64,000 nucleotides of DNA from Candidatus Lindowbacteria bacterium RIFCSPLOWO2_12_FULL_62_27 (GCA_001784175.1 MFPR01000001.1:124001-188000), one strand, 5' to 3'; shown: positions 22,552 through 34,390, counted from the stretch's first letter. Made by a program: numbers and translations. The notes: generated by a model from the sequence alone, not told the origin.

Positions 22552-23376
22552 ATAACGCGCTCCTCCTTACACAACCGCAATTTTAAAATCCAAACCGGCG
22601 TCAGGGCCGTCTATGAGTATTCCGCCCTGCCCTCAACAAACGATCGCGCCAAACTTCTCGCAGTTCAGGGCGCGCCGGACCGGTCCCTCGTCATCACCTC
22701 CCGGCAAACCGCAGGTCGGGGCAGGGGCGGCAACCGCTGGTGGTCCGGCCAAGGATCGCTGACCTTCTCAGTCATTTTCAGGGTGCCGCGCACGTCGATC
22801 GCACTGCAGAATCTCGCTCCGATTTCCCTCGTCGCCGGCCTGTCCGTTGTCCGGACCGTCCGGCGGATTCATCCGGCATGCCCGGTCGCCCTCAAGTGGC
22901 CCAACGACATTTATTCGGGGCCGAAAAAGCTCGGCGGCATCCTGACGGAGAGCAGCGTACGCGCCGGCCGGCCCGCCAACCTGATCGTGGGGGTGGGGCT
23001 GAACGTCAACACAAGGTTCGAGCGTGCGCCGGCGGCCATCCGATCCACTGCAACGTCTCTTTGCCAAGGCACGTCGCCAAGCCATCGCATGGACGAAGCC
23101 CGGGTTCTGGCGTCTGTCTTGAAGGAGCTGTGCAAACTGGTCCGCCAATTCCTCAGAAGCGGATTTCAGCCCCTTTGCGACGAATGGACTTCCTTCGACG
23201 CCGTCCCATTCGGAAGCAGAATCAGCGTCGACGACGGCAATATTAATATGGAAGGACGCTACGAAGGCATTCTTCCGACAGGTGCACTAAAATTGCGTGG
23301 AGAATCGGGCCTCCACACGATCCTCTCCGGCACGCTCCGTCCCGTGGGCGTACTTCCCATAACGCATAAAGTGTAA
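22552..23376 (+). CDS. birA: biotin-protein ligase; non-canonical start; 3' end overlaps the dif/attL site
   Basis: frame open from 22546; PSTN, QTAGRGR..NRW, KWPND, KKLGGIL and GVGLNV motifs, the first two upstream of the ORF-track start at 22783. Confidence 0.88.
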   Translation: MTRSSLHNRNFKIQTGVRAVYEYSALPSTNDRAKLLAVQGAPDRSLVITSRQTAGRGRGGNRWWSGQGSLTFSVIFRVPRTSIALQNLAPISLVAGLSVVRTVRRIHPACPVALKWPNDIYSGPKKLGGILTESSVRAGRPANLIVGVGLNVNTRFERAPAAIRSTATSLCQGTSPSHRMDEARVLASVLKELCKLVRQFLRSGFQPLCDEWTSFDAVPFGSRISVDDGNINMEGRYEGILPTGALKLRGESGLHTILSGTLRPVGVLPITHKV

Positions 23377-24769
23377 ACTTGGTAGATGTATCTGATTGTA
23401 TACTGCTTTTTTCGTTACCTCCTCCCACTGTTGGGATAAGATTTTTTGGTCTGTACCGTTTGAAAACATCCATAACATAACGTTCGTCGGCCATGAGGGA
23501 CCAGGTGGAGTAATGGAGGCGGCCGGTCGGCATTTCCATGACGGGGATCCATTTCTGGGATACGGCCCAATCCAGGCGCTCCTCCGCCTCCGAAAGGTGC
23601 GTGGGCCGGCCGACGCGGCACATGTCGACGAGGTACTCCACGATCATGCGTTCACGCCAGGCGGTGGCGCAGCGATAGACGGCGCGTTCGGCAATCATCT
23701 GCCAGCGCCGGCAGGCGCCGAGTTCCCGGCGGTTGCATTCGAGTTCATGGCGGGCCTCCAGGCAGTCGCCGGCGTTGGCCTGGGCCCATTCGAGGAGGCG
23801 GGTCTTTGATTCGGCCTGGATGTCGTCGACCGACTTCGTCGGGATCCGTTCGAGACGCCGGCGCCAGTCGGCGAGGATGTCGGCTTTCGTTCTGGACGGA
23901 TCCTTGTCCCGGCGCGTGTTCATTTCGGCGGCCTTCGCGTTCGTAGTTGTGAGGAGGGCCTTCCGGATCTGCGCCTGGCGCGTCGAAAACTCCTCCTGGG
24001 CCTCGTGGGATACGAGGTCGGACCGCCACTGGCCATGGGGCATATAGGAGCGCTTGAGGTCGAAGCGGTGGAGGCGGGCGCGCAGTTCGTGCATGTAGAT
24101 TTGTGTCGCCAGATAGGGAAAGTCCCGGAAGTAAAATCGGGCGCCGTGGATGCCCGAAAAATGCGGCGCGCCATTTTTCTCCCACTGCGTGATGTTGAAC
24201 ACCAGCACATGGGAGGACAGGTGCGGATCATACTCGCGTGAGAAGCCGTCACGCAGGATCGAGTAGACCATGTTATCAGTCGATAGATCGACTTGAGTCT
24301 GGCCGCCCTTTCCCATCCTAGCACGAGAGTATCGTATCTCTATTTCCCGCATGGTCGCCAGGACCGCGTCATCATGCGCTGCCGTGATGTCGGCACGGGT
24401 CATATTGCGCGGTAGCTCAAAGCCGTCCATGAGCGCCAGCATGGAGATTGATTTGGGCGCGGAAAAGGCCCAGGAAAAGCAAAGTACCTTGTGTTTTTGC
24501 ACGATCTTTTTGCCGGCGGCGTCACAGCCTTTGAGCAGGTTCACCATGTCGTCCCGGCCAATGGGCTGCCCTTCCTCAAAGCCGAGGTAGGGCGCGGTTT
24601 TGCCGTAGACGCGGACTCCTACGGAGTCATCAGCCTGGTCAAAGTAGTAGTTTGTACTCTTGTCGTAGAAATAATCGGCGATGCCGACCGGGTCCTGTTT
24701 CATCGGGACGCCCCTAAACACGTCCCACCCCAACTTCGAATCGCGCGTTAGCTCCTTTCGGATCGACAA
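23243..24769 (-). CDS. MOBF (TrwC/TraA-like) relaxase: N-terminal half of the att-split relaxase-helicase gene
   Basis: DYF...NYY tyrosines, FSAPKSIS, SREYDPHLSSHVLVFN, FSTRQAQI, TRRDK; reads through attL into 35 host-derived codons. Confidence 0.88.
   Translation of the reverse strand: MSIRKELTRDSKLGWDVFRGVPMKQDPVGIADYFYDKSTNYYFDQADDSVGVRVYGKTAPYLGFEEGQPIGRDDMVNLLKGCDAAGKKIVQKHKVLCFSWAFSAPKSISMLALMDGFELPRNMTRADITAAHDDAVLATMREIEIRYSRARMGKGGQTQVDLSTDNMVYSILRDGFSREYDPHLSSHVLVFNITQWEKNGAPHFSGIHGARFYFRDFPYLATQIYMHELRARLHRFDLKRSYMPHGQWRSDLVSHEAQEEFSTRQAQIRKALLTTTNAKAAEMNTRRDKDPSRTKADILADWRRRLERIPTKSVDDIQAESKTRLLEWAQANAGDCLEARHELECNRRELGACRRWQMIAERAVYRCATAWRERMIVEYLVDMCRVGRPTHLSEAEERLDWAVSQKWIPVMEMPTGRLHYSTWSLMADERYVMDVFKRYRPKNLIPTVGGGNEKSSIQSDTSTKFTLYALWEVRPRDGACRRGSCGGPILHAILVHLSEECLRSVLPY
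23352..23379 (+). other. attL: hybrid dif site with degenerate XerD arm
   Basis: ACTTCCCATAA-CGCATA-AAGTGTAAACT; differs from the attR copy only at TTA->AAG. Confidence 0.9.
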
Positions 24770-24979
24770 AAAAATCCAACCCGCCGGGCGGCGCCGCGCG
24801 CGGGCAGACCGGGGCCGAAGGGGTCAACCCCGGCGAAACGTTATCGGAATGCGATTGGATGCGCTCTGAATCCCCTTCTCTCATTACGCGGAGTGTCTAC
24901 CAGTGATTAAAACAAAATGTCAATAGCCGGCGTGAAAATTGTTTCCATGTGCGGCGCCGTCGAATCCGCGGGACAGCGC

Positions 24980-25008
24980 TTGATTTTCCGGTATACCGCC
25001 GGTATACT
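24980..25008 (+). promoter_or_regulatory. promoter and probable operator of the vapBC pair
   Basis: TTGATT-17-TATACT overlapping two CCGGTATAC repeats and the palindrome CGGTATACCG. Confidence 0.55.
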
Positions 25009-25030
25009 GTCCCTCGAGGAGGTGATCGAC

Positions 25031-32974: not shown

Positions 32975-32990
32975 GACGTTTGACCTCCTC

Positions 32991-34361
32991 TCATGCGATG
33001 TTTGAAACCATTGATCTATGGTTCGGAAAGGGTTTGCAACCCTTCTCAAATGGTTCTTCAAACGATTCGAGCAACTCGGAATGAACGGTTTGTCGAATCG
33101 TTTCGCGGCGCGCCAGGCACTCCTCCAGCGTCACGTCCGGCCAGCCCCAGGAAAGGGTCGTTTCGGCGTGCTGTCCGAGCCTGGCGAGAAAGAGCAGGTT
33201 TTCCCAATCGTCGGTGAAGATGAGACAGAAGTCCCGGGCGCGCGTGATCTGAACGTACTGGGCCCGCATGGTCTCAAGGTCCTTGCGGGTCGTGTCGGCG
33301 TCGATCAGGACCGTTCCGACGGTCCGGCCCTGGGCCTTCCAGGTTGTGACGGCGTAGCCATGGTCGAACCACGGATAAAGCGCCGGATTGATTTCGACGG
33401 TCCGGCCGCCGTCGAGCCGGACGGTGAAACGGTCCCGGCCGATATCGGCCACCGTTCCGGTGAAGCCGTTTCGGAGATTCAGGCGGCCGTAGAGGTTCTT
33501 CGTGCAGACGATGCGGTCGCCCGGCAAAATCTCCACGTCGAATTCGGAGCGCTTGCGCCTCGCGCGAAACTTCACGGCCGCGCGGCGCAGACGCAGGGGG
33601 AAAAGCTTTTCGCGGATCCGGCGGTTGATCTCCATGCACGAAAGGGCCGAAGGAGAAATGACAAGCATCCCGGGCCGAAAGAGGCGCGCGATTTCGGCCC
33701 ACCGTTCCTCCGGCGGCCCGATCTCGCGGACCCAGCCGAGGTCCCGAAGCGCGCCCAAAGACGCCGGCATGTTTCGCGCGCGGGCCAGGTCGCAGGCGTG
33801 ACGCAGACCTGAATGACGCTGTCTGAAATTTTCGTGCAGTTCCACAAGGACGCCGGCGCCGCGCGCGAAGTCGCAAAGGTTCGTGAAGGGATCGCCGGCC
33901 GTCAGGGGCGTCAGCTGCGAGGGATCGCCGATCAACAGGAGATTCATGCCGAGCCGTTCGCATACCCGGGTCAGGCGCGCCATGTCGGTTATGCCGATCA
34001 TCGAGCTTTCATCGACGACGATGAGCATGGAATCGGCGGACCGGCGGCGCTTGATGCCCTCGTAATAGGCGAGGAAAGCGGCGAGCGTCACGGCGGGGAT
34101 GCGGCTTTCCTCGTGCAGGTTGGCCGCCGCGGCGCCGGTGGGCGCCACGCCGCGGATCTTCCATCCCCGCGGTAGAAGTATCTGACGCAACACGTCGACC
34201 AGATACGTCTTTCCGGAGCCGGCGTCTCCACGCCAGCACATGAAAGTTTCGTTCTGCGCCGTCAGCGATTGAACGGTATAGATAAGGGCTTTTTTCTGGT
34301 CCCCTGTAAGATTATGTAGACTTTCCTCAAGCTCCAATCCCGCAAGGAGCTTGCGGAACGC
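32991..34361 (-). CDS. SF1B (RecD/TraA-like) helicase: C-terminal half of the att-split relaxase-helicase gene
   Basis: GDAGSGKT, VAPTGAAA, VVDESSM, IGDPSQL, NFRQ, HGYAVTTWKAQG, TRAR; frame open back to attR. Confidence 0.9.
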   Translation of the reverse strand, partial: AFRKLLAGLELEESLHNLTGDQKKALIYTVQSLTAQNETFMCWRGDAGSGKTYLVDVLRQILLPRGWKIRGVAPTGAAAANLHEESRIPAVTLAAFLAYYEGIKRRRSADSMLIVVDESSMIGITDMARLTRVCERLGMNLLLIGDPSQLTPLTAGDPFTNLCDFARGAGVLVELHENFRQRHSGLRHACDLARARNMPASLGALRDLGWVREIGPPEERWAEIARLFRPGMLVISPSALSCMEINRRIREKLFPLRLRRAAVKFRARRKRSEFDVEILPGDRIVCTKNLYGRLNLRNGFTGTVADIGRDRFTVRLDGGRTVEINPALYPWFDHGYAVTTWKAQGRTVGTVLIDADTTRKDLETMRAQYVQITRARDFCLIFTDDWENLLFLARLGQHAETTLSWGWPDVTLEECLARRETIRQTVHSELLESFEEPFEKGCKPFPNHRSMVSNIA

Positions 34362-34362
34362 T

Positions 34363-34390
34363 ACTTCCCATAACGCATATTATGTAAACT
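34363..34390 (+). other. dif: chromosomal dif site (attR), XerC/XerD recombination site
   Basis: ACTTCCCATAA-CGCATA-TTATGTAAACT; 11-6-11 layout with the canonical XerD arm of B. subtilis-type dif. Confidence 0.9.

Follow-up and report, generated by a model that had tools for sequence, protein, structure and literature searches.

Tailless double-jelly-roll prophages integrated at dif, the chromosome-resolution site, are established in Vibrio (PMC9966536, PMC11630473). In a 2025 survey of prophages of this type, the phage attachment site (attP) lies between p16, encoding an RstR-like repressor, and p15, encoding an XafT-like protein, which become the prophage termini (PMC12715192). The filamentous Xanthomonas phage XacF1, the one case noted of a dif-like attP in a coding region, carries it inside ORF12, a possible regulator, which integration may split (PMC4076744). 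In archaeal viruses and plasmids with SSV-type (‘suicidal’) integrases, attP lies inside the integrase gene, which is intact only in the excised circle (PMC7253208, PMC8371274). Elements that exploit Xer recombination, tailless double-jelly-roll prophages and genes partitioned by their own attachment (att) site are all known already. Here we describe an element in a 64,000-nt window (the whole stretch of DNA that was analysed; MFPR01000001.1, 124001-188000) of the genome of Candidatus Lindowbacteria bacterium RIFCSPLOWO2_12_FULL_62_27, which lives in groundwater, is uncultured and belongs to a phylum with very few sampled members. All positions are counted from the first letter of the window.

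The element is a prophage at dif whose attP lies inside a relaxase-helicase gene that is whole only in the circular form, an arrangement that we consider well supported. We also judge it likely that the prophage is that of a temperate phage integrated at dif, with an attP that mimics dif and splits the phage’s own replication gene. From sequence comparison we infer the dependence on Xer, the role of the protein in replication, its loss of function when split and any regulatory benefit; a regulatory reading of the split is plausible, though weakened by adverse points given below.

The locus resembles the PM2-like dif prophages of the NO16 or ‘Asemoviridae’ type, as far as these are described, in being tailless, about 10-11 kb long and without an integrase, in encoding a double-jelly-roll capsid protein and an ATPase, and in being flanked by dif-like sites of which one regenerates a canonical dif. 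Its termini, unlike those of the prophages in the survey (PMC12715192), are the two halves of a replication gene, and scans of the element detected no family resembling p15/p16, XafT/DUF3653 or RstR. Unlike the Vibrio dif prophages, it has a TrwC relaxase-helicase as replication protein and a host of a different, barely sampled phylum; the term ‘relaxase’ is not mentioned in the literature found on double-jelly-roll phages. ORF12 of XacF1 is a small inovirus ORF of uncertain function, whereas the gene divided here encodes a two-domain replication enzyme, is 2.8 kb long and has its frame restored. The likeness to the SSV-type systems is one of logic only, and since the gene divided here is no integrase, the element falls outside that family. 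SSV-type elements split the integrase itself, so that the enzyme for excision must come from elsewhere, and their hosts are archaea; here the recombinase would be that of the host, a bacterium, and the split gene a replication initiator. In the open texts, no replication initiator split between its catalytic domains by a dif-type attP was found, although the att tables of the survey (PMC12715192) might hold an attP within a gene.

Attachment sites and the divided replication gene

The element is bounded by 29-nt direct repeats at 23351-23379 (attL, plus strand) and 34362-34390 (attR, plus strand), and the repeat unit between them is 11,011 bp. The repeats share an exact 18-nt core (TACTTCCCATAACGCATA), which is followed by three mismatches and then eight matching bases. 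The dif-like sites within them are 28 bp long (23352-23379 and 34363-34390). When a 28-mer with at most three mismatches was sought, the 64-kb window yielded two occurrences versus 0.00 expected (100 shuffles). A looser dif pattern found the same two places and no third in the whole genome (4.39 Mb in 44 contigs, 94% complete).

The right site is a canonical chromosomal dif, with XerC arm ACTTCCCATAA, central region CGCATA and XerD arm TTATGTAAACT. The left is a hybrid dif-like site, in which the XerC-arm-like ACTTCCCATAA and the same CGCATA are joined to a degenerate XerD-arm-like sequence (AAGTGTAAACT), the arm derived from the phage. Arms were assigned by comparison with the dif layout in PMC5357621 and with the single sites of other genomes. 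The core CATAA-N6-TTATG occurs in the window at the right site only; the left site has three changes, all in the inner XerD arm. Since 4 of the 40 other genomes searched have a single site whose inner arm is the canonical TTATG, the XerD arm of the left site is taken to be the foreign one. The two sites differ exactly as recombinant sites should. The attP deduced from them matches host dif at 11/11 positions of the XerC arm, 6/6 of the central region and 8/11 of the XerD arm, and the phage-side XerC arm, now at attR, is identical to the chromosomal one, now at attL (11/11). Agreement at 25 of 28 positions argues for an evolved mimic of dif and makes a chance match unlikely.

This layout is described for TLCphi and the gonococcal genetic island (GGI), whose attP matches the host dif in the XerC arm and central region but diverges in the XerD arm, so that a true dif and a hybrid site flank the integrated element (PMC5357621). 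The XerD arm is only mildly divergent here (8/11), unlike those of TLCphi and GGI. Their sites, unlike this one, are not described as lying inside a gene, and TLCphi needs XafT (PMC5357621), of which no family member was found in our element. In the frame of the gene, the canonical XerD arm reads TAA and the phage arm CTT, and the host arm at attR accordingly supplies an in-frame TAA just ahead of the helicase part of the gene. The canonical arm leaves the other two frames of the strand open; coding alone therefore fails to explain the divergent arm, and coding constraint accounts for its degeneracy only partly.

The host encodes the machinery that such an element would use. Its XerD scores 335 bits, over the NCBIfam cut-off, and it has three further XerC/D-like paralogues at 228-291 bits as well as an FtsK with a gamma domain (78.9 bits). 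One of these paralogues (G000:C1:192513-193391; 290 bits on the XerD model, below the cut-off) lies 34 kb to the right of dif on the same contig. Pfam scans of 32 open reading frames (ORFs) of the element, 20 of them also scanned with PHROGs, gave no family of integrases, resolvases, type IV secretion system (T4SS) proteins or coupling proteins; a novel recombinase is possible. The lack of an integrase suggests that the phage uses host XerC/XerD, and is hence one of the integrative mobile elements that exploit Xer (IMEX). A family member of the host (G003) has one dif-like site, at a distance of about 1 kb from its orthologue of the gene at 21867-22556 of the window (78% amino-acid identity), and an orthologue of a further left-flank gene, at 20658-21803, is also near that site.

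The gene that the sites divide lies on the minus strand at both ends of the element. Its 5' part (23351-24769) encodes a TrwC-type HUH relaxase domain with a conserved extension, as judged by Pfam and by a profile of homologues, and its 3' part (32991-34361) a superfamily 1 (SF1) helicase in which the Walker A (GDAGSGKT), DESS, GDPSQL, KAQGRT and ITRAR blocks are present. From 24769 to 23351 the frame has 473 open codons and ends ...TKFTLYALWEV at the core. Beyond attL it continues for 35 codons of host DNA to a stop at 23243. A hairpin with a T run, resembling a terminator, is located within this tail in host DNA just outside attL (23295-23318, minus strand). At the right site the minus-strand frame reads ...FT*YALWEVAFRKLL... 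and is then open for 456 codons past the core, until the stop at 32991. The core is read as YALWEV in both frames, so that a crossover anywhere in it joins the halves in frame. The joined gene has 929 codons (473 + 456) from TTG 24769, with no stop or frameshift, or 907 from ATG 24703, which is preceded by AGGGG, was used by gene callers for P0002 and is the probable start.

Pfam assigns TrwC to the N-terminal part (PF08751, E 5.9e-41, 141 bits, positions 5-285 of 286), the sole TrwC domain in the genome. To the C-terminal part it assigns AAA_30 (E 2.2e-38) and AAA_19, with UvrD_C_2 below its cut-off. On a profile of 13 full-length relaxase-helicases (882 nodes), residues 25-438 of the N part match nodes 9-419 and residues 17-429 of the C part match nodes 449-855. 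The halves are complementary, with no duplication and no loss. The 29 unconserved nodes between them correspond to 51 residues here, and on this alignment the break falls in a variable linker of about 50 residues. BLASTP placed both parts collinearly on all 16 full-length proteins tested, and of 13 homologous loci, 11 have relaxase and helicase as one contiguous gene while the other two are cut off by contig ends. Both parts lie on the minus strand, yet it is the 5' part that has the lower plus-strand coordinates. This permuted order points to a circular permutation caused by the integration of a circle; insertion of an element into a gene would not produce it.

These results bear out most of what an earlier note on this DNA had proposed about the gene, namely that the two ORFs together make up a single relaxase-helicase gene, that the break is at a dif-like att site with an in-frame join at the 18-bp core, and that an intact gene is possible only in the circular form. 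It had proposed profile searches for TrwC, AAA_30 and UvrD_C_2 domains, of which the first two were confirmed, and had named separate relaxase and helicase genes in homologues as contrary evidence, which did not appear. The homologous elements with dif at the same position that it had envisaged were likewise not found: in none of the 13 homologous loci does the replication gene contain a dif-like core. Two metagenome-assembled genome (MAG) contigs each have one dif-like site, with a good XerC arm but an odd XerD arm, downstream of a fused relaxase-helicase homologue, at 0.4 kb (L009 7142-7169) and 1.1 kb (L019 4037-4064); these sites may be due to chance or may serve other Xer-exploiting elements as attP.

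The protein resembles the MOBF relaxase-helicases. As in the MOBF proteins TrwC of R388 and TraI of F (PDB 1omh, 1p4d, 2q7t, 5n8o), an N-terminal HUH domain with paired tyrosines is followed by a C-terminal SF1 helicase, and its size of about 900 residues is that of the closest homologues, although identity to the nearest full-length proteins is only 33-38%. In an exhaustive search of representative proteins, the best non-self matches of the N part were 863-1042 residues long and 31-38% identical, the best full-length one being 38%. The closest full-length homologues are encoded on MAG contigs, mostly labelled Elusimicrobia, next to ParA-like, Prim-Pol, TraG and integrase genes. On this evidence the phage seems to have taken a relaxase of the type found in plasmids and integrative and conjugative elements (ICEs) as its replication initiator.

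Phage identity and virion genes

The remaining genes of the element identify it as a phage. The gene at 29673-30491 (minus strand) encodes a double-jelly-roll capsid protein, as judged by Pfam (P2_N E 7.6e-26; P2_C E 1.3e-35), PHROGs (phrog_8536, E 3.7e-33) and direct comparison of capsid proteins. Its product is 41% identical to autolykivirus capsid proteins and more weakly similar to those in Pseudoalteromonas and NO16-like phage records (64 records matched). Upstream of it, a packaging ATPase is encoded at 30888-31502 (minus strand; phrog_2666, E 5.6e-17), for which Pfam gave no match above cut-off. A conserved virion-module protein of unassigned function (27738-28286, minus strand) is shared with three of seven double-jelly-roll contigs from IMG/VR. 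All seven contigs have the capsid gene and four have the ATPase (tblastn), in the same order as here. Domain matches further identify an SLT lytic transglycosylase, the lysin (27114-27722, minus strand), and a Laminin_G_3 or concanavalin-like protein that is a candidate spike or receptor-binding protein (26138-27172, minus strand).

Comparison of these genes indicates that the element is a tailless double-jelly-roll phage of the PM2/autolykivirus type, Vinavirales-like, and not a plasmid or an ICE. The unit of 11,011 bp fits the genomes of about 10 kb of Vinavirales-like phages, and its circularity is deduced from the permuted gene. The capsid, ATPase and virion gene set and the lack of T4SS and coupling-protein families speak against a conjugative-type element. 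In a phage without conjugation genes, the relaxase-helicase is best read as an initiator of rolling-circle replication. This setting, in a virus, also separates the protein from MOBF TrwC and TraI.

The recognised genes for virion and replication all have the same orientation. A small hydrophobic ORF (32762-32974, minus strand) begins 17 nt past the stop of the replication gene, behind GAGGAGG-ATG. This spacing and ribosome-binding site indicate a tight linkage between the replication gene and those downstream of it. Further small ORFs and a zinc-finger-like ORF follow, and then the ATPase. One minus-strand ORF in this stretch (32281-32655) contains about 3.4 tandem copies of a 45-nt unit (32295-32445), which encode Pro/Ala-rich repeats of 15 residues; one sequencing run shows a 3-nt deletion at 31543, in a neighbouring repeat that is GC-rich. 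Upstream of the capsid gene by 177 nt is a perfect match to a sigma-70-type promoter, TTGACA-16-TATAAT (30668-30695, minus strand), which is a consensus match only, as the promoters of the host phylum may differ. A 12/12 sigma-70 consensus ahead of the capsid gene is unusual for a candidate-phylum genome of 63% GC. The promoter scan found no sigma-70-like sites on the minus strand from attR to 30695.

Integrated state and alternative explanations

The integrated form is present in independent data. The element was found in seven sequencing runs from four studies, and Logan contigs of four runs, one per study, were compared over 21500-36500. In runs X1 and X2, which may be the source of the assembly, a single contig crosses both junctions. 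In runs X4 and X5, contigs bridge attL (21832-23669; 22627-27775) and attR (34112-34847; 34191-34971), and a separate metagenome contig of 4.5 kb (L094) has the same attL junction. As the att junctions are bridged by contigs of four runs, the prophage is no assembly artefact.

Several observations weigh against the reading that this is a phage able to leave dif and replicate from a restored gene. The depth of the element in X4 and X5 (about 5-8) equals that of its flanks, and nothing points to replication in these samples. The circle junction for which the earlier note had called was not found: neither it nor an empty dif is among the 15 joints listed of 31 in the contigs of the four runs, although metagenome contigs drop rare variants, so that rare excised forms could escape. 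No RNA data sets holding the element are listed. No relative with this replication gene was found in viral contigs, metagenome contigs or protein searches, which leaves a sample of one. In viral contigs, an alignment of relaxases and the capsid protein alone returned nothing as queries, the 29-mer of attL/attP had 0 matches, and an alignment of capsid proteins returned the seven double-jelly-roll contigs, none of which has the relaxase or helicase. In metagenome contigs, the N part together with P0018, a 100-residue protein fragment of other source, retrieved only the window’s own contig and L094. Word-indexed protein searches with the N and C parts, at near lengths, gave only the window’s own clusters; residues 120-473 of the N part, at shorter lengths, gave nothing. 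Of the four genomes of the host phylum that were searched, the window’s own alone has the capsid gene. GC skew does not mark the site as the terminus: it is negative on both sides of it and weak throughout the 292-kb contig, its sign changing near 70 kb and 260 kb. Synteny with G003 is absent on the right flank. Finally, the capsid promoter is intact in the prophage, and the late genes would therefore need control beyond the split.

Further adverse points come from the relaxase itself. The tyrosine pairs of F TraI have counterparts in Y33/Y35 and Y41/Y42. Ser99 and Ser185 stand where F TraI has D81 and H157 (alignment numbering), the former of which we take to be a conserved active-site aspartate. 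The 11 nearest relatives keep D and H at these positions. Among the 150 best matches, motifs located by regular expression have D in 122/125 and H in 125/131, four or five of the exceptions looking like mis-hits of the expression. D174, S185 and H187 align with H146, H157 and H159 of F TraI, so that the histidine triad, the metal site of this relaxase family (PMC2943615), is incomplete. The Asp at the H146 position is common to the 11 nearest relatives, and is a further difference from MOBF TrwC/TraI. At alignment columns that do not vary among 11 relatives, the protein further shows changes in 8 of 48 for the relaxase and 19 of 78 for the helicase, more than any relative does save, in the relaxase set, one that is truncated at its N-terminus. 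Such departures could reflect decay or the divergence of an outlying lineage. The helicase motifs are intact in the conserved-block alignment. The main caveat suggested by the alignments is that, with two conserved active-site residues replaced, the restored protein may be inactive.

These data bear most directly on an explanation that we consider unlikely, that of a trapped or decaying prophage. A phage would have integrated through a dif-like sequence in its replication gene, lost the ability to make Rep and persisted as a stable, vertically inherited remnant, with the in-frame junction devoid of regulatory meaning. The serines at two conserved active-site positions and the excess of changes at otherwise invariant columns are what decay would produce. 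The recovery of the integrated form only, at chromosomal depth, in four runs of four studies and in L094, agrees with it too, and resistance to excision driven by FtsK is reported for GGI-type sites, in which the XerD arm is divergent (PMC5357621). However, the 929 codons of the joined gene contain no stop or frameshift, nor do the capsid, ATPase, lysin and spike-like genes. The change from D to S, with the motif around it, recurs in P0018 (57% identical); this fragment is alone in sharing it, yet the sharing argues for a trait of the lineage instead of recent damage. Intact helicase motifs, and an attP that matches host dif at 25 of 28 positions as an evolved site would, likewise speak against a remnant.

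It is quite improbable that the split is neutral, with the relaxase part (bearing its 35-residue host tail) and the helicase part (from TTG 34337 or ATG ~34241) made separately and acting in trans. Relaxase and helicase are separate proteins in some systems, the relaxase ORF contains the complete Pfam TrwC domain and has a natural stop, and gene callers called a helicase ORF of 416 residues (P0152). Read-through from the co-oriented host ABC-transporter gene that adjoins attR outside the element (34409-35419, minus strand) could transcribe the helicase part. Against this, no Shine-Dalgarno-like sequence precedes either internal start, TTG 34337 or the ATG near 34241, while neighbouring genes have GAGGAGG. 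A start at the ATG of P0152 also leaves out the foremost of the conserved helicase blocks (L-S/T-x-x-Q, at C-part residues 17-30), and the homologues with both parts on the contig are all fused.

A mobilisable plasmid or ICE that has integrated, or a chimera in which assembly has joined a circular replicon to the chromosome, would suit the plasmid-like neighbours of the closest homologues and the fact that MAG contigs can be chimeric, but is extremely improbable given the virion genes shared in order with phage genomes, the lack of T4SS and coupling-protein families, the junctions bridged independently in four runs and the recombinant character of the att sites.

Proposed mechanism, control and significance

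The likely course of events, if the element is a temperate phage with a dif-mimicking attP, can be outlined as follows. The attP would lie inside the linker of about 50 residues between the TrwC-type HUH relaxase and SF1 helicase domains, and integration at the single host dif would split and circularly permute the replication gene. As the right end is a true dif after integration, the host would keep dimer resolution. In the prophage, the relaxase part would stay behind its own control region and read through attL into host DNA. The helicase part would end up behind host DNA, namely the ABC-transporter gene, and the in-frame TAA. The genes behind the helicase part, encoding the small membrane protein, the zinc-finger-like protein and the ATPase, would likewise be displaced from the phage control region. 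Recombination of attL with attR by Xer would rebuild the circle, the full gene of 907 or 929 codons and the continuity of the operon. Full-length Rep and rolling-circle replication would thus be available only after excision, and part of the assembly module would probably also be available only from the excised circle.

The control region in question is predicted to be the divergent interval between the replication gene and the gene of a ribbon-helix-helix (RHH) protein (24770-25030). It contains TTGACA at 24924-24919 on the minus strand and, on the plus strand, a promoter-like TTGATT-17-TATACT (24980-25008) with two copies of the direct repeat CCGGTATAC over the -10. The RHH protein (25031-25261, 77 residues) and a PIN-domain protein (25254-25670) form, by their domain matches, a vapBC-like pair on the plus strand (25031-25670). 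The two genes overlap by 8 nt and are the only recognised plus-strand operon of the element. Strong ribosome-binding sites precede the RHH gene (GAGGAGG) as well as the ORF after the replication gene (GAGGAGG) and the replication gene itself (AGGGG). Minus-strand ORFs at 24907-25284 and 25362-25655 were rejected as genes, the RHH/PIN pair explaining the stretch better. A structured attenuator or origin in the replication-gene leader (24700-24900) was also rejected, as folding was no better than in shuffled sequences (z = 0.40).

The presence of this pair alters what can be said of repression. The earlier note had found no recognisable repressor, which is too strong given an RHH protein with a PIN partner, and had suggested that the split stands in for one. 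That suggestion is unsupported, as the pair is encoded divergently from the replication gene and the capsid promoter is intact in the prophage; the pair may, for its part, only stabilise the prophage. A more specific version of the regulatory reading is possible, if on balance doubtful: that the split is a lysogeny switch, with host Xer recombination as the on/off device for a one-directional operon of nearly the length of the genome. Since attP lies 1.4 kb into the operon, integration would cut the promoter from the helicase, membrane-protein and ATPase genes and destroy Rep, and only the rare excised circle would replicate and assemble. The early genes would then need no dedicated immunity repressor, and the degenerate XerD arm would set the rate of switching.

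The finding is relevant to phage biology in several respects. It provides a first candidate virus for a phylum that is represented by four genomes in the collection searched, and a double-jelly-roll phage with a replication protein apparently from the plasmid/ICE relaxase pool. It also shows that in nature a protein linker can accommodate a dif site. Should the split be functional, the physical state of the genome (integrated or circular), its capacity to replicate and the expression of part of the virion module would be coupled to one another without a recombinase encoded by the phage.

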